This document shows positions 13,944-41,545 of a stretch of 64,000 nt of DNA, piece by piece. Source of the stretch: Lysobacterales bacterium (GTDB lineage Bacteria > Pseudomonadota > Gammaproteobacteria > Xanthomonadales > Rhodanobacteraceae). The notes under the pieces were generated by a model, which made no database searches, was not told the origin of the DNA, and was given only the letters and a program-made list of their open reading frames with translations. Every line of letters starts with the position of its first letter. Position 1 is the stretch's first letter. A program made the translations under genes and the position numbers. Location: contig JADJHN010000003.1 in NCBI GenBank assembly GCA_016707485.1, positions 363,770 to 427,769 on the forward strand, given 5' to 3'.

Positions 13944-14636
13944 ATGACCACCCTCTTCATCTCCGATCTCCATCTCGATCCGTCGCGACCGGAAATCATC
14001 GCGACCTTCCGGCGCTTCATCGCCGAGGAAGCGGTCAACGCCGACGCGCTCTATATCCTCGGCGATCTGTTCGAAGCGTGGATCGGCGATGATGCCGACG
14101 ACGAAACAGGCAAGCAGTTCGTGGACGCCATGCGCCCACTGCGCGAGGCACGCAAGCCCTGCTTCTACATGCACGGCAACAGGGATTTCCTGCTTGGCGA
14201 ACGCTTTGCAAGGGAATCGGGCATGACCCTGCTGCCCGACCTCTCCGTCATCAACCTGTACGGCACACCCACCCTGCTCATGCATGGCGACAGCCTGTGC
14301 ACCGACGATGCAGCCTATCAGGCGTTTCGCAAACAGGTTCGCTCAGCCGAATGGCAGAGACAGTTTCTTTCGCAAGGCATCGAAAAGCGCCAGGCCTTCG
14401 CCACGCAAGCGCGCAACGAAAGCCAGCGCCACACCAGGGACAGCAGCAAAGCGGCCATCATGGACGTCAACCAGCAAGCGGTCGAAGCCGCGATGAAATC
14501 AGCCAAAGTCCGGCGTCTGATCCATGGGCACACGCACCGACCAGCGACCCATTCGTTTGACTTGAACAACGCTCCCGCCACTCGAATCGTGCTGGGGGAT
14601 TGGTATGAGCAAGAAAGCGTAATGCGAATCCCCTAG
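13944..14636 (+). CDS. lpxH: UDP-2,3-diacylglucosamine diphosphatase
   Basis: ISDLHL, YILGDLFEAWIGDD, MHGNRDFL, HGDSLCTDD, IHGHTHRP, VLGDW. Confidence 0.96.
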   Translation: MTTLFISDLHLDPSRPEIIATFRRFIAEEAVNADALYILGDLFEAWIGDDADDETGKQFVDAMRPLREARKPCFYMHGNRDFLLGERFARESGMTLLPDLSVINLYGTPTLLMHGDSLCTDDAAYQAFRKQVRSAEWQRQFLSQGIEKRQAFATQARNESQRHTRDSSKAAIMDVNQQAVEAAMKSAKVRRLIHGHTHRPATHSFDLNNAPATRIVLGDWYEQESVMRIP

Positions 14637-14699
14637 CGAGCCGGAATTCACCAACTCGCCAAAGAGGCATGCACGCGTTGTGTGCTGGACCCGCGAAGG

Positions 14700-16109
14700 C
14701 TACTTGGCAACTATTTTTTGCGGGCTTGTGAACTGCTGCTTGCGACCCTTGTTGTAAACGATGTTGATGTAATACCAATACGTATTACCCGATTCCGCAG
14801 ACGAATCTCTCCACTGGTAGATCGACCCCGCTTCGGGATCTCCATCCAGCCGCTCCAGAATCTTGTCGTTAACCCTCGAATATGGCCCAGTTTCTGCCAC
14901 GGAACGATAGATCTCGTAACCGTAAATATCGTACTCATTGGTCACCTGCCATTTGAGCAGCGGACCAGTTCCATCTGGCGTCGACATTGTCGCTGGAGCT
15001 TTGGCTTTCTCGGTCGTCTTCGTAACGGATGACTGCAAAACCGAAGAAATTGACTTAGATTCCTCCTGTGCGGCCTTGAAGTCTTCTTCGAGACTCCGGA
15101 TTTGGGTATTCTTGCCAATTCCGATCGCACCAAAACGAACAACCAGATTCTGTTTGTAAGACGGCAACTCAATTTCAAGCGTTCCGCCCGTAGTACCGAG
15201 CAAATTCATCGGCGGATAGGCGACCTTGACATTCTTGCACGACTCGTTCTTCGGAACGCAATCATTAACCGAGGTGAACACCTTCATTCTGCTTTTTGCG
15301 ACAACTTTGCCAATATTCAGTGGTTTGCCAGTTACATCGTTCAGAACAAGCATCATCTCGGCCGCCTGCCCCTCTCTCAAGAGACCAAAGTCGAGTGGAT
15401 CGGAACTCGGTACGACTGAACCGCGCGCCTGCCCCTTCAAGCGAAACGCAACAATAGGCTGCAGCGGGTTGTCCGTTCGGATTAGCAGCTTCTCGTCGAA
15501 GCTCGACCAAGGCGCATCAGCCCTACTGTGCAACTCAAGTGCCCCGCCATTTCGGACAATTTTCACGTCGAAATAGGCGCTCGGCTTTTCGACGCCAACC
15601 AGGTGCAGCGTAGCCCCGGGCCTGACATCGATCGGAATCACTTTCTCAATTGGCTGGGCAAGCTTGATGGTGTTGAAATCGATGCCCAGGCCGTCGGGGG
15701 AAACCAGCCAGTCTGCAAACCCCCGCACGACGAACCCATCAATTGGGCCAGGCTGGCCTTTCACGAACACGTCGAAATAGTGGGCAACGCGGCCAACTTC
15801 CTCTGTCAACGAAAAATCAAGTTCGGCCACAAATGACTCGCCTGCATTTACCTGCGATGGCGTAAATCCGATCGTTACCTTTTCTGTCCCACGTGGCACG
15901 ATCCTCTCAATCAACATCGAAGTACCGGTAAGGTTTCGTGCCACTACCTGTGCGTGCACCTTAGCAAACGGATGAGTTTGGCCAATTTCAGTGCCGGTAA
16001 ATTCGAACTTGCCAGTTGAATGTGCCTGAGTTGGAACAAGCGTGGCTGCTTGGCCGGCAGGAAACGCCAAAAGGAGTACCACTATGAGGAGAAAATTGGT
16101 GGGTTGCAT
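14700..16109 (-). CDS. Secreted protein: tandem DUF1573/PapD-like Ig domains plus a C-terminal FN3-like beta-sandwich that lacks a clear first strand
   Basis: Signal MQPTNFLLIVVLLLAFPAGQA; repeated LDFG...L.I..V and IRTDNP..P..L.G motifs; C-terminus LLKWQVTNEYDIYGYEIYRS...YQWRDSSAESGNTYWYYI. Family names are from recall, not a search. Confidence 0.7.
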   Translation of the reverse strand: MQPTNFLLIVVLLLAFPAGQAATLVPTQAHSTGKFEFTGTEIGQTHPFAKVHAQVVARNLTGTSMLIERIVPRGTEKVTIGFTPSQVNAGESFVAELDFSLTEEVGRVAHYFDVFVKGQPGPIDGFVVRGFADWLVSPDGLGIDFNTIKLAQPIEKVIPIDVRPGATLHLVGVEKPSAYFDVKIVRNGGALELHSRADAPWSSFDEKLLIRTDNPLQPIVAFRLKGQARGSVVPSSDPLDFGLLREGQAAEMMLVLNDVTGKPLNIGKVVAKSRMKVFTSVNDCVPKNESCKNVKVAYPPMNLLGTTGGTLEIELPSYKQNLVVRFGAIGIGKNTQIRSLEEDFKAAQEESKSISSVLQSSVTKTTEKAKAPATMSTPDGTGPLLKWQVTNEYDIYGYEIYRSVAETGPYSRVNDKILERLDGDPEAGSIYQWRDSSAESGNTYWYYINIVYNKGRKQQFTSPQKIVAK

Positions 16110-16165
16110 ATGAAAAAGCCCACGTGACAAGCACGTGGGCTCTAGTTCCTCAATCAGACGATCAA

Positions 16166-16693
16166 TTATTCGACAGAGAAATTCTGCAGAGCGACTGGCA
16201 GACGGGGTACAGCGATCGTGACCGGGCCGCATTGTCCGACAGTGAAGGATGTCACCGCCAAGTAGTATTGGCCAGCAGCAAGTCCTTGCACCGAAATTGT
16301 TTCACTACCGCCAGCCGGATTGCTATCTGCCTCGACTGGACATGGTGCTGCTCCCGAGCACGCACCCTGCATCAGAGCAGCATACATGTCATAAGTAGCC
16401 GAAGTAGTAGAAATCACGAAATTCTGTTCCGCTGCGGTAGCGCCGCCAATTGCTCCCGGACCCAATGTCACAGACCAAATGGCGTCTGTTGCCGAGCTTG
16501 TTCCCGCAGCACTGCACATGACAGCCAACTGATTGGTGACACCGCAAGTGTCGAAATTAGTAACCGCAGTTGTCAAACTCTGCGGTCCGGCCAACGAGAT
16601 TGCACCTGCACTAGCTGTGCATACCTGTGCAAATGCGGATCCAGTTGCAAGGCATCCAACCATCGCAAGCGAACATACCAAATAATTCTTCAT
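16166..16693 (-). CDS. Small secreted Cys-rich PPC-like protein ending in LPVALQNFSVE
   Basis: GGAG RBS; signal MKNYLVCSLAMVGCLATGSAFA; six Cys in the mature chain; GLAAGQYYLAV; terminal PVxLxxF motif. Confidence 0.8.
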   Translation of the reverse strand: MKNYLVCSLAMVGCLATGSAFAQVCTASAGAISLAGPQSLTTAVTNFDTCGVTNQLAVMCSAAGTSSATDAIWSVTLGPGAIGGATAAEQNFVISTTSATYDMYAALMQGACSGAAPCPVEADSNPAGGSETISVQGLAAGQYYLAVTSFTVGQCGPVTIAVPRLPVALQNFSVE

Positions 16694-16741
16694 AAAGTCA
16701 CTCCAATGAAATTTAAAAGCAAACAAGTTATCAGTTAGTTA

Positions 16742-17494
16742 TTAGTGACCAATGAAAGTCTGGCGGCGCGAATCGAACTGGTCGAAATAGACATAGCTGG
16801 TATTGGTGAAATTCTGGCGGTAGAAGGTATTCGCGGTCGAAAAACCGAGTGCAACCTGGTCAACACCGGTCCAACCAGTATTTGCCAAGTTGGTGAACGT
16901 GCCAGTCGGGGCACCTTCAGTTGTTGACGCAGACGCGTTGGTAACCCAGTACTTCATCGTTGCCGCCGCGCCCGTAACCAAATCGATTTCAACGCGATTT
17001 GCGCCCGCCTGATTCGGAAGTGGAATATCAAGTGTTTGGTACTGACTTCCCTGATTGGTATCACCAACGAACATACGCAAGATTGCCGCTGATCCATTAC
17101 CAGTCAACAGCGCAAAGACCATTCGGTTGTTGCCACCGGCGGGAGCCGTCGCACCAAGAACAGAAAACGCGATTACGTTTCGATTCGCTTGAGTCAAACC
17201 AATGCCCGATGCGTCAATAATGAATTGAGCACGATAACGGGTCTCATTCGCCGGAGTCTGATCGAGTACAAAAGCCTTTGAGCCAGTCGAACCGTTCTGG
17301 TTCAGCGCAACTCGCAGCCTGCAAGCTGTGGAGTCATAACCACCTGTCACGCTGGTTGCCGTGCCTTGCAGCGTCGAAACCAAGCTCCAAGGCGGGGAAA
17401 GGCTGGCCGGGCACTGCGCCATTGCGGCACCGGCGGCACCGAAGCCCACAAAACCGAGAACTGCCAGTGACAGTGTTTTCATTTTGCTGTTCAT
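16742..17494 (-). CDS. Secreted Ser/Thr/Gly/Asn-rich ConA/jelly-roll-like protein ending YFDQFDSRRQTFIGH
   Basis: GGAGAG RBS; signal MNSKMKTLSLAVLGFVGFGAAGAAMA; motifs VLDQTPANETRYRAQFIID, RVEIDL, VDQVALG. Confidence 0.8.
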   Translation of the reverse strand: MNSKMKTLSLAVLGFVGFGAAGAAMAQCPASLSPPWSLVSTLQGTATSVTGGYDSTACRLRVALNQNGSTGSKAFVLDQTPANETRYRAQFIIDASGIGLTQANRNVIAFSVLGATAPAGGNNRMVFALLTGNGSAAILRMFVGDTNQGSQYQTLDIPLPNQAGANRVEIDLVTGAAATMKYWVTNASASTTEGAPTGTFTNLANTGWTGVDQVALGFSTANTFYRQNFTNTSYVYFDQFDSRRQTFIGH

Positions 17495-17583
17495 TAAAAC
17501 TCTCCAGGATTGTCCGGGCGGGGCGGGTCCCCTGTCCCCTTTGCGCATTGCAGAATGGTCTTGCCGATGCCTGAACCTGTCGA

Positions 17584-17613
17584 AGCATAAAGAGTAAGGT
17601 CTTTTGCCGTCAA
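17584..17613 (-). promoter_or_regulatory. Near-consensus sigma70 promoter for the 17494-14700 operon
   Basis: Minus strand TTGACG-N18-TATGCT, about 90 nt upstream of the ATG at 17494. Confidence 0.6.
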
Positions 17614-18018
17614 CAAGTTCCGCGCAGAAGTTTGACCGACTTGTCAGAACCGAGGGTGGCCATGACGTTGCTGATCGGGCCGGCATTTCTGAATCGCTAC
17701 CGGTTTCCGAGCCCCAGGCTTTCCACGTCCACGCCGGATGAGACGCAGCGCGGGACTGGATCCGGACACCTGCCACGATTGTGGCTGATCCGCCACGCAC
17801 GGCCGCACGTCCAGTTGAGGCCGCGATCATGATGATCCGGCCCTCAGCGGCCGCAGGCCCTGGAGGCAGCAAATGCATGGATCGTTGTCCCTTGGCGGGA
17901 TTCGTTGCATTAAATGGGGCTGGTTGGGCTTGCCGGCCGGGCTGGAAGCTTGCTGCGTGATTGACATCGATGCGCGTCGCTGCCGAGAATCGCGCCCCCT
18001 TTGAGGCCATTGCCGCCC

Positions 18019-18747
18019 ATGTCCAGCCTCGCCCCCGCTGATTGTCTGGCCGTGATTCCCGCCAGGGACGAGGTTGCCACCGTGGCTGAAGTGGTGCGGG
18101 GCGTGCGCGAATCCCTGGGTTGCCGGGTGCTGGTGGTCGACGATGCCAGCACGGATGGCACGGCCGCGGCGGCGCGCGCTGCCGGTGCGGAGACGTTGAT
18201 GTTGCCGATCGGCCTCGGTGCCTGGGGTGCGTGCCAGGCAGGAATCCGCTATGCAGCCAGGAATGGATTTGCCGGAGTCATCAGCCTGGATGCGGATGGC
18301 CAGCATCAGCCGGAATTGCTGCCCTTGTTGTTCGAGGAACATGCGCGAAGCGGGGCAAATGTCGTTATCGGCACGTGCATCGAGCGCCTGAGCCTGCCAA
18401 AGCGCATTGCGTGGCAATATCTGCGCCTGCTGACCGGCCTGCCCTTGCGGGATTTCACCTCCGGCCTGCGCCTCTATGATTGCCGGGCAGTGGAGGTGCT
18501 TGCCGCGCCCGAGGCCAGCCTGCTCGATTTCCAGGATGTCGGTGTGCTCATGTTGCTTGCAGGGAAAGGAATGAGGATTGTCGAGACGCCAACCTTGATG
18601 CAGCCGCGCCAGGAGGGTCATTCGCGCGTTTTCGCTTCGTGGGCGGTGGTAGCACGCTACATGTTCCATACAACCATCTTGTGCATCTCGCGCCTCGACC
18701 TCGGCCTGCGCTCGACCAGGGTCGCGGCAAGGGGAGCGCAATCCTGA
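18019..18747 (+). CDS. GT2 glycosyltransferase (polyprenol-phosphate sugar synthase-like)
   Basis: VIPARDE, LVVDDASTDGT, LGAWGACQAG, LDADGQHQP, DFTSGLR. Confidence 0.9.
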   Translation: MSSLAPADCLAVIPARDEVATVAEVVRGVRESLGCRVLVVDDASTDGTAAAARAAGAETLMLPIGLGAWGACQAGIRYAARNGFAGVISLDADGQHQPELLPLLFEEHARSGANVVIGTCIERLSLPKRIAWQYLRLLTGLPLRDFTSGLRLYDCRAVEVLAAPEASLLDFQDVGVLMLLAGKGMRIVETPTLMQPRQEGHSRVFASWAVVARYMFHTTILCISRLDLGLRSTRVAARGAQS

Positions 18748-19139
18748 TGCTTGATGCACAGATCACGGCGGCCATCATTGGCGTCGCCCTAGCCGGTGCC
18801 ATCCTTTATCTGGTGCGACGCGACCACCTGCACGGCCCGTTTGCGGCCTGGTGGCTGCTGGTGGCGGCGGCAACCCTGATTCTCGGCACGTTTCCGTCGC
18901 TGGTGATCTGGCTAGGCAAGCTGACCGGCATCAACTACGCGCCGGTATTGCCGATCATCATCGGCCTCGGCCTGGTGCTGCTGCGCTTGCTCAAGCTCGA
19001 TATCGACCGCTCCCGGCAGGAGCGCCGCATGCGCCGGCTTACCCAGAAACTGGCCATCCTCGAACAGGAAATCGAGCAGTTGCGCCATGGCCGGGCTGTG
19101 GCCGATCCGCTTGCCGAATCCCGCGACAAGCCGAATTGA
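18747..19139 (+). CDS. DUF2304-like small membrane protein
   Basis: Three hydrophobic segments, FPSL..WLGKLTGINY, coiled tail RRLTQKLAILE; coupled to the GT2 gene (TGATG), the usual context for this family. Confidence 0.75.
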   Translation: MLDAQITAAIIGVALAGAILYLVRRDHLHGPFAAWWLLVAAATLILGTFPSLVIWLGKLTGINYAPVLPIIIGLGLVLLRLLKLDIDRSRQERRMRRLTQKLAILEQEIEQLRHGRAVADPLAESRDKPN

Positions 19140-20296
19140 TGCGCATCCTGCATCTCGGCAAGTACTACGCGCCACAACGCGGCGGCATCGAACGACACCT
19201 GCAGGATCTGTGCGAGTGGTTTGCCGGACACGGGCATCAGGTGACCGCGCTCGTGCATCAGGCGGCCGGTTGCTGGCGCAGCTCGGTGGAGTCGATCCAC
19301 GAAGTTGATATCTGCCGGGTCGGCTGTGTCGCCGCGCCACTCTATGCACCGATCAGCCCGACTTTCCCGTTGCAGCTTGCGCGCCTGATCAAGCGCTTCA
19401 AGCCGCAGATCCTGCATCTGCACCTGCCCAACCCTTCGTGCTTCTGGGCCTTGCTGAGCCGGCGCGCGCGCGCCTTGCCGTGGATCGTGCACTGGCACGC
19501 CGACGTTTCGGCGGAGATGCCGGACTGGCGGGTGCGCGCGGCGTATCGCCTCTATCGCCCGTTCGAGCAGGCCGTGCTGGCCAGGGCGTCGGCCATTGTC
19601 GTCACCTCGCAGGCGTACCTCGACGCCAGCGGAGCACTGGCACGCTGGCGGGACAAGTGCACGGTGGTGCCACTGGGTATTGCCGAGGCCAACGGCGACA
19701 AGGGAACTGCGCCGATCTGGCCGCGTCCCGATCTTCTGCGCCTGCTCGCAGTGGGCCGATTGAGCCACTACAAGGGTTTCGCCGTCCTCCTCGACGCGCT
19801 CGCACGGACTCCGGTGGCGAGCCTGGTGCTGATCGGCCAAGGCGAGGAATCTGATCGGCTGCGTGCGCAGGTGGCACGCCTGGGCCTTGGCGATCGCGTT
19901 GCCATGGCTGGCGAATTGAGTGAAGCCGACCTGCTCGCAGCCTATGCAGCCGCCGATGCACTCGTGTTGCCCTCGCTGGATCGCAGCGAGGCGTTTGGCC
20001 TGGTCCTGCTGGAAGCAATGCGGGCGCGACTGGCGCTGGTCGCCAGCAACATTGCCGGCTCGGGCATTGGCCAGGTCATCGTCAATGAAATCAGTGGGTT
20101 GCTGGTGAAACCTGGCGATGTGGATGAGCTCGCCAAAGCCCTGTCGCGGATTTCCGACCCGCTCCTGCGCGCATCGCTGGCCGATGCCGGGCACCAGCGC
20201 TGGCGCGAACACTTCACCCTGGAGCAGTCGGCCCAGTCGGTTCTGGCGATTTACTTGCAACTGGCAGGTGCAGGTCGGCAAGCAGCACGGCAATGA
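19139..20296 (+). CDS. GT4 glycosyltransferase
   Basis: MRILHLGKYY..GGIE, AVGRLSHYKGF, EAFGLVLLEAM; TGATG overlap with the upstream gene. Confidence 0.9.
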   Translation: MRILHLGKYYAPQRGGIERHLQDLCEWFAGHGHQVTALVHQAAGCWRSSVESIHEVDICRVGCVAAPLYAPISPTFPLQLARLIKRFKPQILHLHLPNPSCFWALLSRRARALPWIVHWHADVSAEMPDWRVRAAYRLYRPFEQAVLARASAIVVTSQAYLDASGALARWRDKCTVVPLGIAEANGDKGTAPIWPRPDLLRLLAVGRLSHYKGFAVLLDALARTPVASLVLIGQGEESDRLRAQVARLGLGDRVAMAGELSEADLLAAYAAADALVLPSLDRSEAFGLVLLEAMRARLALVASNIAGSGIGQVIVNEISGLLVKPGDVDELAKALSRISDPLLRASLADAGHQRWREHFTLEQSAQSVLAIYLQLAGAGRQAARQ

Positions 20297-38465: not shown

Positions 38466-38653
38466 AGCAACACTGATCAAGGTCAACGATGCCGGATGGG
38501 CGTATTGCGTTTTCGACGTTATCCGCCCAGCTGGTTTGTGCAATTCATTCGGCGCAAAATGCCGAGCGGATCACACTCTCCTGCTCGCCCGTGTCACGAT
38601 TCGACGCGGTTTTGCGATTTAGCATCCACGGAATCTTCAGTGGAGTCACGGTC

Positions 38654-41545
38654 ATGCCCTGCACAGCGTTTCGTCGCGTTTCGCTCATAGGCGGCTTGGT
38701 TGCCGCATTTTTCACCTCGGCGGCACTGGCCGCGGTCGGAACCTGGAGCACCACCGGCCCCTATGGCGGCTCGAATTACCTGCTCAAGGTCTACGAACCC
38801 GGTCCAAGCACGTTGTTCGCCGCTGGCCGCGGCGGCCTGTTCCGCAGCTATAGCAGCGGAGGCACATGGGAGCGGATCGAGGTTGGCTTGCCGGAGGCGG
38901 TCTATGTGAACGCGATGGACACGAGCACGATCGCGCCGGTTGTCTACCTGTCCACCTATGCGGGTTTGTATCGAACCGGCAACGCCGGTGATTTGTGGGT
39001 GCCGATCAGTACTCCGCTGTCAGGCGACAACGTCACACTCGATGTCAGCGTGCAGCGCGCCACCAGCAACAACATCGCCATCGCAACCACGGCCGGCGCC
39101 TATGTCTCGACCAATGCAGGCAGCACCTGGACAGGTCCTGGCGCGTCCGCGAGTGGTGGCGGTTACAGCAAGATCGTCTTCGCCGCCGATGGCTCGCTGT
39201 ATCTCGGCATCCAGTATGCGGATCCCGGCATTTTCAGCGGCGCGACCTTGCTCAAGAGCACCGATGGTGGCGGCACGTGGGCACCCCTCGCCACGCAGCC
39301 ACCTGGCTTGTGGGGCATTGATCAGCTATCGGTTTCTCCAGCCGATCCGCAACGGGTCTTTGCCAGTGACGGCGCAACCATGGTAACCAGCGGCAATGGC
39401 GGCAGCACCTGGTCGACAGTCACTTTGCCCGCCAGCGGATCCGGTTGCCAGCAAGTGGTGGCGATTACGCCGAGTCCTGCATCGGCCACTGGGGCGTTTG
39501 TCGGCTGCAGATCGAATGGTGTGCATTTTGCTGCGGACGTGATGCTTCCCGCTCCGGCTTGGACGGACTGGACTGCGGCCAACGCACTGACCGCCAATGG
39601 AACCGATCCGGTCCAGGCTAGCGAGATCGCCGTACATCCCGGCTACCCGACGACGCCCACGCTATGGACTGGAACCATCGATGCCGGCGTGTTCCGCTCG
39701 ACCAATGGCGGCACCGCCTGGGCACCGGTCAACAACGGCTACCAATCCGCCAACATCCGTGCACTCGCGCCGCATCCGCTGGATCAAAGTGCATCGGGCG
39801 CAGTCCTGCTGGCAGGCTACGGCGATGCATTCTCCACCGCGACGCCTGTCTACAAGTCGTCGGACGGCGGTGCGAGCTGGGCTGCATCGCTGGGGGGGCT
39901 CAACGCGGAGCAGATCCGTTCTATGGTGATCGATCCGACCACCGTCGACAACACCCTGACCACCTCCGAGTCCTTCACCGTGTATGCCTCGGGCCGTTCG
40001 GAACGCATTCCCACGCCGGCAAGCCGCGACGGTGGCATCTACAAGAGCACCGATGCGGGAGCAACCTGGACGACCATCGACAATGGCATCGCCACCGTTT
40101 CCGGAACGCGATACCTGGGCACGGCGCGTGCGATTGTGTTGGACCCGAATTCCTGTGCGAGCCCTCCCTGCGTTGCCGGGTCGAGTCCACTGCAAACGCT
40201 GTATGTGGCCGGCACCGGAGTTCCGGCTGAACCCGGACTGCCTTATCAATCCGCCCGGGTCTACAAGAGCACCAATGCAGGCGCTTCATGGGTGGCCTCG
40301 GAGAGTGGCTTGCCAACCACCGAAGATCTTGGGCCTCCAGGAACATTCAACTACGTCTACCGGATTGTCGTTCCCCTGGTGATCGACCCGGCCAACCCGT
40401 CCACGCTGTACCTGGGTACGACCACCTCCTGGAATGCCGAGTCTTTCGGCGGCGTTTTCCCGACCGCCGCCAATGGCGTCTTCAAGTCCACCAATGGCGG
40501 CGCAACCTGGGTCAACTCCAGCAACGGCCTGCCACGCTTTGGTGGACCCGGGACCTCGCATTACGACGTCCTGGCCCTGGCGATCAATCCGGCCAATACG
40601 CAGGTCCTCTATGCGGGGGTGACGAGCTTCGCGTACACCGGTGCCGTTGGCAGCATCTACAAGAGCACGGATGGCGGCGCCAACTGGTTCGAAACCAGCA
40701 CCGGCATCGCCGGCCAGGATGTCCGCGCCTTGTTCATCGATTCGGCCGACAGCAGCGGTGACACGATCTACGCCGGCACCGGTGGCAATGGTGCCAATCC
40801 GGGCGGCGTTTATCGCAGCACCGATGGCGGTGCCACCTGGAACTCGTTGAGCATCGGCCTTCCGGCTGACGCCGCCCTCGCCCTGACCATGCCACCACGC
40901 GCACTGGGCGCTCCGGCCCGCATCGTCGCCGGCACCACCGCCGGAGTCTGGGAATACACGGCTACGCCCGACGAAGACGCGGATGGCTCGCCTTCGGCCG
41001 TCGAAAACAGCGTGCTGGCAGGTGACGGCAATGGAGATGGCACGCCCGATGCAATGCAATCCAATGTCGCATCGACCTCCGCAAGCAGTACCAGTGCAAC
41101 AAACGCCTCGGCGCCCACGGGAACAATCGTGCGCACGACGATGGAAATTGTCTCGGCAACGTGCAGCCAGCTCAACGACAGCACGACACAACCCGCCGAT
41201 CTGTATCCACCCGATCCACTCGGCTCGGCATCGAGCCACACGCCGTGGGGACTGGTCCACTTCTCCATGCCCGACTGCAGCCAGGCTACTGTCCTTGTCA
41301 CCTTTCATGGCGCCAATTTCGGACCGGGCTGGAAATGGCGCAACTATGGTCCGCGCATCCCCGGCGATGCATCGACGTTTGGCTGGTATTCGTTCGCCGG
41401 TGCACGGCGCATCGATGGACAAACCTGGGAGCTGAAGATTGACGCCAGTCGGCAGGGCAATTATCGGGCTGATGCCAACAACATCCTGTTCATCGGTGGC
41501 CCCGGCGACCTGCCCGACTCGATCTTCGATCACGGCTTCGAATAA
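38654..41545 (+). CDS. Secreted Asp-box/BNR (VPS10/sortilin-like) beta-propeller plus choice-of-anchor-U-like domain, ending DSIFDHGFE
   Basis: GGAG RBS, signal peptide; about 12 SxDGGxTW-type repeats; DEDADG..GDGNGDG..D..QSNVAS...WRNYGP...GGPG; terminal IFxxGFE motif. Confidence 0.8.
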   Translation: MPCTAFRRVSLIGGLVAAFFTSAALAAVGTWSTTGPYGGSNYLLKVYEPGPSTLFAAGRGGLFRSYSSGGTWERIEVGLPEAVYVNAMDTSTIAPVVYLSTYAGLYRTGNAGDLWVPISTPLSGDNVTLDVSVQRATSNNIAIATTAGAYVSTNAGSTWTGPGASASGGGYSKIVFAADGSLYLGIQYADPGIFSGATLLKSTDGGGTWAPLATQPPGLWGIDQLSVSPADPQRVFASDGATMVTSGNGGSTWSTVTLPASGSGCQQVVAITPSPASATGAFVGCRSNGVHFAADVMLPAPAWTDWTAANALTANGTDPVQASEIAVHPGYPTTPTLWTGTIDAGVFRSTNGGTAWAPVNNGYQSANIRALAPHPLDQSASGAVLLAGYGDAFSTATPVYKSSDGGASWAASLGGLNAEQIRSMVIDPTTVDNTLTTSESFTVYASGRSERIPTPASRDGGIYKSTDAGATWTTIDNGIATVSGTRYLGTARAIVLDPNSCASPPCVAGSSPLQTLYVAGTGVPAEPGLPYQSARVYKSTNAGASWVASESGLPTTEDLGPPGTFNYVYRIVVPLVIDPANPSTLYLGTTTSWNAESFGGVFPTAANGVFKSTNGGATWVNSSNGLPRFGGPGTSHYDVLALAINPANTQVLYAGVTSFAYTGAVGSIYKSTDGGANWFETSTGIAGQDVRALFIDSADSSGDTIYAGTGGNGANPGGVYRSTDGGATWNSLSIGLPADAALALTMPPRALGAPARIVAGTTAGVWEYTATPDEDADGSPSAVENSVLAGDGNGDGTPDAMQSNVASTSASSTSATNASAPTGTIVRTTMEIVSATCSQLNDSTTQPADLYPPDPLGSASSHTPWGLVHFSMPDCSQATVLVTFHGANFGPGWKWRNYGPRIPGDASTFGWYSFAGARRIDGQTWELKIDASRQGNYRADANNILFIGGPGDLPDSIFDHGFE

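Follow-up and report, generated by a model that had tools for sequence, protein, structure and literature searches.

The subject of this analysis is a gene on the minus strand of a 64,000-nucleotide stretch of Lysobacterales DNA (Rhodanobacteraceae; GenBank assembly GCA_016707485.1, contig JADJHN010000003.1, positions 363,770 to 427,769 of the forward strand), called the window below and used for all position numbers. The gene, at 16742–17494, encodes an exported protein with a predicted ConA-like fold and heads a three-gene operon. Our preferred reading, which we hold tentatively, is that the product is an abundant, variable, glycan-associated subunit of the cell surface or extracellular matrix that works with a PPC-like partner, the product of the second gene. 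Within a three-protein assembly, extracellular or on the cell surface, that is conserved in Dokdonella and related Rhodanobacteraceae and has the PPC-like partner and a DUF1573/FN3-like protein as its other members, the protein would be the exported major subunit, expressed at a very high level. It would act as a lectin-like protein of the coat or matrix, binding a surface glycan or being decorated by one. The sequence, homology and fold class of the protein, the synteny and co-transcription of its gene, high RNA levels and allelic variability are the observations that carry this reading. The original prediction, made from the letters of the window, had instead cast the protein as the receptor for other proteins that end in the motif IFxxGFE, an idea that is weakened by the results given here.

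The ConA-like protein and its multidomain relatives

The gene and the elements of its product are as follows.

16742–17494, minus strand, stop included: coding sequence of the 250-residue exported ConA-like protein (type T2 below), from the open reading frame (ORF) and its translation
17417–17494, minus strand: Sec-type signal peptide MNSKMKTLSLAVLGFVGFGAAGAAMA, residues 1–26, with a predicted signal-peptidase I site between AMA and QC, read from the sequence
17384–17416, minus strand: N-terminal cap QCPASLSPPWS, residues 27–37, in which Q-C-P falls on the alignment positions of G-F-E
17321–17323, minus strand: codon of Cys58, an invariant column at the start of strand 58–64 and the probable disulfide partner of Cys28
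17222–17239, minus strand: RYRAQF motif, residues 86–91, the counterpart in alignments of RYRARF in the multidomain repeat
16745–16786, minus strand: C-terminal motif FDQFDSRRQTFIGH, residues 237–250, comprising the end of the last strand (235–242) and the conserved tail RRQTFIG

The ORF translates to MNSKMKTLSLAVLGFVGFGAAGAAMA followed by QCPASLSPPWS, with FVLDQTPANETRYRAQFIID in its interior and YVYFDQFDSRRQTFIGH at its end. The start and the motifs quoted in the original prediction are all present, and the motif said to be missing is indeed missing: a scan of the 250 residues for [ILVF]F..GFE found no occurrence. The ATG is preceded, at a distance of 5 nt, by the Shine–Dalgarno sequence GGAGAG. 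We rejected a lipoprotein reading of the N-terminal cysteine in A-M-A-Q-C, which does not satisfy the lipobox L-[AS]-[GA]-C because Gln stands at position −1; a few relatives have LAAC (P0126 and P0112; P and L numbers denote database proteins and loci), and most have AQC or AVC. The mature chain has 224 residues, a mass of 23.7 kDa and two cysteines in total. Thr, Ala, Gly, Ser and Asn make up 49.6% of it, in agreement with the predicted composition. The closest database match is a hypothetical protein from a Dokdonella sp. metagenome-assembled genome (MAG), with an identity that rounds to 100% and a difference at residue 2 (Asn in the window, Lys in the match). DNA of the gene is present in many activated-sludge and wastewater metagenomes.

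An AlphaFold2 model built with 91 homologues is confident, with a mean predicted local distance difference test score (pLDDT) of 90.7 and a predicted template modeling score of 0.84. Its first strands lie at 38–42 and 44–50 and its last at 235–242, residues 27–37 and 243–250 are ordered coil, and the signal peptide is modeled as a helix at 4–23 with low pLDDT. The best Foldseek match is the PL20 glucuronan lyase 2zzj (E 2.8e-8, template modeling (TM) scores 0.57/0.60, probability 1.0), followed by the lectin-like HcN domain of clostridial toxins, PL7 alginate lyases and Cip1. All 62 matches in the Protein Data Bank (PDB) at E ≤ 0.001 are jelly-roll lyases, lectin-like domains or glucanases. 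Model and neighbors agree with the ConA-like fold that had been predicted and support a two-sheet β-jelly roll as the fold class of the window protein.

A phmmer search of 1.84 billion representative proteins gave 169 matches. Stand-alone proteins of about 250 residues make up most of them; a few others are large and multidomain (P0217, P0243, P0245, P0249, P0268, P0234 and P0235). E-values for four of the latter are 1.5e-9 (P0217), 4.5e-6 (P0243), 1.2e-5 (P0249) and 1.7e-4 (P0268), with the query aligned from residue 36 or 41 to 249. The repeat copies in the multidomain proteins all run D.IFxDGFESGxLSAWS...RYRARFYFD...YYFDAFESRRQTYIGP, so the domain IFxDGFE...SRRQTYIG that the original prediction had described does exist. 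As it had also anticipated, both HMMER and MAFFT alignments open after GFE, and they place W36 on the Trp of LSAWS; because they do, we regard the window protein and the repeat module as homologous in sequence rather than alike by chance. Common to both are this Trp, RYRA[RQ]F, an E.D/W core and the ending FDxF[DE]SRRQT[FY]IG. The residues kept in both the ConA-like family and the module are E84, Y87, R88, D238, D241, R243, R244, I248 and G249, and those invariant in the C-terminal motif across the 91 aligned homologues are D238, F240, D241, S242, R243, R244, I248 and G249. The repeat module itself has no model in Pfam or NCBIfam. Its tandem accessory copies ride on proteases and adhesin-like proteins, for example the subtilase P0243 and the cadherin/Big_9 protein P0249. 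A further profile search with the divergent stand-alone group gave 24 matches.

The relatives fall into five architectures.

T1: IFxDGFE immediately ahead of the domain, which comes in tandem copies; Cys pair absent (P0217, P0243, P0245)
T2: signal peptide followed by (Q)C...W, a conserved Cys pair and the ending FDxFDSRRQTFIG (window protein)
T3: distant stand-alone proteins with the same Cys pair and the ending ...FDQIESxDDxLF[WY]xxFE (P0213, P0218, P0231)
T4: IFRDGFE next to the signal peptide, an IgGFc_binding domain after it and, 430 residues past IFRDGFE, a copy lacking GFE (P0262)
T5: signal peptide running straight into xxAWS, GFE and the Cys pair both absent (P0203, P0212, P0224, P0265)

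Unlike the repeat module, the window protein is a stand-alone domain preceded by a signal peptide; it lacks IFxD, shows QCP in place of GFE and carries a Cys pair that the repeats do not have. IFxDGFE directly before xLSAWS is likewise absent from all 91 stand-alone homologues in the alignment. C28 and W36 are eight residues apart, as are the Phe of GFE and the Trp in GFESGxLSAWS, and distant T2-like proteins keep this Cys–Trp spacing too, e.g. QVCDDTNLSAWS. Among the 91 homologues C28 is more than 90% conserved and C58 and W36 are invariant; the Cys pair is conserved and occurs only in forms without an adjacent N-terminal GFE. Residues 31–40 have a mean pLDDT of 95 in the model. The original prediction held that the whole of IFxDGFE was missing. 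Anchored on the Trp, the alignment confirms the absence of the IFxD half and puts Q-C-P on the GFE positions; at this level, and with the same eight-residue spacing, the QCPASL segment largely occupies the place that had been taken to be empty. The true loss relative to the module would be about four residues, IFxD, with Q27-C28-P29 in the GFE place. We propose that the stand-alone jelly roll derived from an IFxDGFE...RYRARFYFD...SRRQTYIGP module by loss of this half-strand and that the new, shortened N-terminus, QCP, is held at the old GFE position, probably stapled there by a C28–C58 disulfide that we infer from the conserved pair. A Phe/Gly to Cys/Cys covariation was considered and dropped, as C58 aligns in two alignments with a variable Tyr/His/Lys position and not with the Gly of NYGMQ.

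Expression, operon and variation between strains

In four metatranscriptomes, RNA contigs over 16148–17500 reach a depth of 5–33, and, apart from the 5′ leader of the transcript itself, most of the 15 kb around them lies at 0–2, with the reservation that contig depth is a rough, poor measure of expression. Single RNA contigs cover both the ConA-like and the PPC-like gene, which are co-transcribed, and assemblies of at least 20 RNA runs contain the ConA-like gene. RNA depth over the third gene is low. Upstream, one RNA contig defines a leader.

17495–17723, minus strand: 5′ leader with the Shine–Dalgarno sequence GGAGAG at 17500–17505, from the X26 RNA contig 17433–17723

This contig reaches 17723, and the promoter therefore lies at or beyond that position. 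A sigma-70-like match at 17613–17584 reaches a score of only 9/12 and falls within the transcribed stretch. Of the strong promoter and abundant product that had been predicted, the high mRNA level is borne out by the RNA contigs; the promoter itself was not identified by sequence. RNA contigs of two runs (X25 and X26, depth 13–15) join position 19534 to 15666 with 35 unmatched letters between, which could reflect a chimeric assembly or another gene order in a co-occurring strain.

As predicted, the ConA-like gene comes first in its operon. The other two genes and the divergent neighbors are listed here.

16166–16693, minus strand: second gene, a 175-residue exported PPC-like protein ending in PVALQNFSVE and a stop; weak Pfam PPC match, E 0.0014–0.002, under the family cut-off
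14700–16109, minus strand: third gene, for an exported protein of 469 residues that contains a weak DUF1573-like region and, at its C-terminus, an FN3-like domain starting LLKWQVTNEYDIYGYEIYR
18001–20296, plus strand: divergent glycosyltransferase set, with GT2 at 18001–18747, a small membrane protein at 18747–19139 and GT4 at 19139–20296

The order of the ConA-like, PPC-like and third genes is kept in a second Dokdonella and a Rhodanobacteraceae MAG (L001 and L002); the ConA-like protein of the MAG is 53% identical to that of the window. GT2 and GT4 were assigned by Pfam, the membrane protein at 18747–19139 holds the syntenic position of DUF2304, and GT2-DUF2304-GT4 flank the operon in L001–L004. 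P0232, P0236, P0238 and P0255 each join a ConA-like to a PPC-like domain, and because of these natural fusions we consider that the two proteins work together. The linker of the fusions carries a GFE-like motif (LFWSDFD and similar). In L127–L129, distant stand-alone relatives from proteobacteria of 35% G+C content (GC) are likewise encoded within glycan-tailoring clusters, whose genes are for sulfotransferases, a sulfatase-family protein, an epimerase, acyltransferases and methyltransferases; the PPC-like partner is absent from these three loci.

The cassette at 14600–17500 has 48–55% GC and a GC content at third codon positions (GC3) of 0.46–0.58, against 62–68% GC in the flanks and a genome GC3 of 0.7–0.8. 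Recent horizontal transfer as the sole cause of the low GC is unlikely, given the synteny conserved across genera. P0055 and P0069 are alleles with the same upstream DNA and with identity at 33–36 of the 36 signal-peptide positions, and yet their mature parts are just 49–52% identical. RNA contigs from the same samples likewise diverge at 17418, the boundary between signal peptide and mature chain. As judged from these sequences, the mature part is hypervariable between strains.

Several points weigh against the reading of the protein as an abundant, glycan-associated surface or matrix subunit. Besides the roughness of contig depth as a gauge of abundance, a 1:1:1 complex with the two partners is unlikely because the third gene is weakly expressed. 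Searches of Pfam, NCBIfam and the PDB with the protein sequence gave no match, and Pfam and NCBIfam found no anchoring domain in it, SLH included. The residues conserved in both the family and the module could form a specific binding site, to which this reading gives no role. Finally, we infer, rather than observe, the location of the protein, its export across the outer membrane, its glycan binding or glycosylation and its assembly with the partners.

The IFxxGFE tag and other roles considered for the protein

The motif that the ConA-like protein lacks is found elsewhere in the window, at the end of another exported protein.

38489–41545, plus strand: 1018-residue exported Sortilin/BNR-repeat protein, whose last seven residues, IFDHGFE, are encoded at 41522–41542

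This protein ends in ...GGPGDLPDSIFDHGFE and a stop, with the tail peptide DLPDSIFDHGFE, and contains the sole [ILVF]F..GFE motif in the 64-kb window. Relatives with as little as 39% identity to it keep [ILV][FY]xxxF[ED] at the C-terminus or a few residues from it, in variants such as IFDNGFE, VFGSGFE, IFASGFD, IFSDKFE and IFANGFE. One genome per GTDB species was then scanned with the pattern ATCTTCNNNVAYGGNTTCGARTRA, which encodes IFx[DNH]GFE and a stop, giving at least 121 matches at no fewer than 120 loci; by our own estimate, which assumes uniform base composition, about 26 would be expected by chance. About 100 of the 121 matches listed end ORFs that have 100 codons or more and whose upstream sequences are unrelated, and a crude pattern finds a signal-peptide-like start in 54 of 71 full-length tail ORFs. 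Ten sampled tail proteins include endonuclease I, reprolysin-like and PA-domain peptidases, and beta-helix/NosD-like, DUF7452 and MAM-like proteins. Nearly all of the matches listed are from Lysobacterales: Dokdonella, Tahibacter, Aquimonas, Rudaea, Pseudofulvimonas, Denitratimonas and Chiayiivirga, together with Rhodanobacteraceae, Lysobacteraceae and Lysobacterales MAGs. Eight matches in unrelated taxa (Chloroflexia, Thioalkalispiraceae, Sulfidibacter, Sphingobacteriales, Legionellales, Rhodospirillaceae, Pelagirhabdus and Bacteroidales) we attribute to chance, because all are in ORFs of at most 71 codons. Five long-ORF tails come from three MAGs labeled Burkholderiaceae, Sedimenticola and Patescibacteria (three in the last), which are possibly mis-binned.

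In loci L007–L126 the motif lies at the exact C-terminus in 102 cases, within 10 residues of it in 17 and internally in eight, and among 534 further long ORFs around the matches about 20 have an independent tail. Because the motif is C-terminal (119 occurrences against eight internal) on about 100 unrelated long ORFs, mostly from Lysobacterales, IFxxGFE-stop behaves at the sequence level as a portable C-terminal tag of unrelated exported proteins in this order. The tailed proteins that had been postulated are thus a real and large class and belong to the same clade as the window. Full-text literature searches yielded no description of the tag and no family model matched it, and to our knowledge no sorting enzyme or receptor for it is known. 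Clustering of the neighbors of tail genes yielded no candidate for a sorting enzyme, just pairs of extracytoplasmic function (ECF) sigma factors and Ser/Thr-kinase-TPR proteins. In different genomes an ECF-type sigma factor recurs beside tail genes in seven loci and a Ser/Thr kinase with TPR in nine (e.g. L114, 2071–5400).

In the receptor model, an IFxxGFE tail inserts into the window protein as the missing first β-strand, next to the C-terminal xFDxF strand; by such β-augmentation, or strand complementation, an abundant scaffold would display many exoenzymes. Several findings speak for it. The tail and its LPD linker reproduce the start motif of T1 copies (LPDVIFADGFE in P0245 and VIFDHGFE in P0249, against LPDSIFDHGFE and a stop in the window), and the window protein retains the residues conserved in the repeat module. 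The tails are numerous, sit on unrelated exported enzymes and belong to the same clade; the ConA-like family and the tails both occur in Dokdonella and Tahibacter, and Dokdonella sp. MW10 has a family member as well as tail genes. The ConA-like mRNA is abundant, the T4 layout of P0262 is compatible with a separable strand supplied from a distance, and the same operon holds a second pair made of an orphan first strand and a domain without that strand.

Other findings argue against it. With Q-C-P on G-F-E and a conserved Cys pair, a GFE strand bound in register would collide with the protein's own N-terminus, and the AlphaFold2 model needs no extra strand to be complete and confident. The strand-less T3 homologue P0218 carries a tail of its own, FLFYDGFE at 241–248, that is left undocked, with pLDDT below 50 and no strand, in a model from an alignment of 19 sequences. 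We had also considered that the T3 tail FDQIESxDDxLF[WY]xxFE might fold back in cis as the missing strand, a circular permutation, and dropped this on the ground that AlphaFold2 leaves the tail disordered. In the 120 tail loci, a hidden Markov model search of all ORFs turned up no member of the ConA-like family. Tails are also present in Aquimonas, Pseudofulvimonas, Denitratimonas and Lysobacteraceae MAGs, none of which is represented by a family member among the few named matches, a weak point, and T2-like proteins are found in 35%-GC proteobacteria as well, inside sulfotransferase clusters. The capless, strand-less relatives P0203, P0212, P0224 and P0265, which come from contigs of 1.7–3 kb, would suit the receptor role better. 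The predicted mechanism therefore lacks support, and two findings, the capped N-terminus and the cis tail left undocked in P0218, partly contradict it; we consider it unlikely that the window protein is the receptor. Somewhat wider, and to be viewed with slightly more doubt, is the notion of an undescribed display system of the Dokdonella/Tahibacter/Aquimonas group, in which an abundant, strand-less jelly roll, be it the window protein or one of the capless relatives, captures the tag by strand complementation.

The second orphan strand in the operon suggests a different role. PPC-like proteins end in PVALQNFSVE in the window (16169–16198), in PVALQNFSVN and PVTLQQFSVD in two genes of L001 and in PVSLKNFSIE in L002. 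In P0314 and P0378, PVEL[VI]SF[SN]A precedes LxWxTATExNNxGFxIER in cis, and the C-terminal domain of the third protein (14700–14990) opens at LLKWQVTNEYDIYGYEIYR, without that strand. At the T3 locus L005, the PPC-like protein has no tail and the third gene is absent too. At the level of motifs, this pattern suggests strand donation within the assembly. The ConA-like protein could accordingly be a building block of a fiber or lattice with subunits joined by donated strands, in which the PVALQNFSVE tail completes the FN3-like domain of the third protein and the conserved N/C-terminal face of the ConA-like protein docks to the PPC-like protein independently of GFE tails. In favor of such an arrangement, the PPC-like tail matches PVEL[VI]SF[SN]A, the first strand of an FN3-like domain, and the third protein lacks that strand; the tail is conserved in L001 and L002, and tail and third gene are both missing from L005. 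Fusions of ConA-like and PPC-like domains also exist. The evidence for the fiber is, however, motif resemblance with two cis examples, and the third gene is at low RNA depth, so that we regard this arrangement as improbable.

Least probable is that the protein is an enzyme, a PL20/PL7-like lyase or glycanase that trims the glycan made by the neighboring glycosyltransferases: although its best structural neighbors are PL20 2zzj and PL7 alginate lyases, and glycan-synthesis or tailoring genes adjoin the ConA-like gene in three distant lineages, identity to the lyases is 9–16% at TM scores of about 0.4–0.6, no Pfam lyase matches, no His is invariant among the 91 homologues, the homologous module occurs in tandem accessory copies on proteases and adhesin-like proteins, as is typical of binding modules, and mRNA at 10–50 times the level of the neighbors together with hypervariability between strains would be unusual for a processing enzyme.

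Relation to known systems and significance

The reading of the protein as a surface or matrix subunit can be set beside several known systems. ConA-like proteins of the PL20, PL7, HcN and Cip1 kinds have the same fold, with no family-level sequence match to the window protein and no lyase catalytic signature seen in it. Carbohydrate-binding modules of the CBM4_9/CBM22 type with an N-terminal GFE strand are a second comparison, and the repeat module begins much like CBM_4_9. First and last strands pair in folds of this type. Residues 19–63 of P0245 match CBM_4_9 (PF02018) positions 3–46 with E 0.0095 and 16.8 bits, against a cut-off of 25.9, whereas the window protein has no match at E ≤ 1.

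Chaperone–usher and type V pili, and the capture of C-terminal peptides by PDZ domains, offer an analogy for the receptor model, in that a domain without an edge strand accepts one from another chain. The window protein differs in that its supposed slot is partly filled by its own capped N-terminus and no chaperone, usher or processing-protease genes were found around the operon in the window or in L001–L004, neighborhoods that contain only the exported trio, glycosyltransferases and housekeeping genes. The IFxxGFE-stop element is, like those of the PEP-CTERM/exosortase, GlyGly-CTERM/rhombosortase, type IX secretion system C-terminal domain and cohesin–dockerin systems, a portable C-terminal element, here of one clade. 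It differs from tags of the PEP-CTERM type in being about 7–8 residues long, in having neither a transmembrane helix nor a basic tail and in ending at or near the stop. S-layer and other abundant, glycosylated coat proteins are a parallel to the role that we prefer. Like them, the window protein is exported, has high mRNA, is rich in Thr, Ala, Gly, Ser and Asn, is hypervariable and is encoded beside glycosyltransferase genes; unlike S-layer proteins, it has a mature mass of just 24 kDa and no SLH or other anchoring domain.

Overall, the window protein is a new variant, so far uncurated, of a known fold class, and the IFxxGFE tag and its partner are the more novel lead. A tag so common implies a recognition partner or a sorting step, for which the window protein and capless proteins of the P0203 type are candidates. 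If the doubtful display system were real, IFxxGFE would be a detached first strand, and the result would be a split-domain, cohesin–dockerin-like scaffold on a Gram-negative surface; on the order of 1–4% of the genes sampled near tail genes would be exported, IFxxGFE-tagged clients of it, and the PVALQNFSVE/FN3-like pair would wire the scaffold together. Regardless of the tag, the window protein, whose family has no sequence relative in Pfam, NCBIfam or the PDB, is encoded by one of the most highly expressed genes of a bacterium common in activated sludge, and the coat and surroundings of the Dokdonella cell bear on floc formation, on interactions with phages and predators and on antigenic variation.

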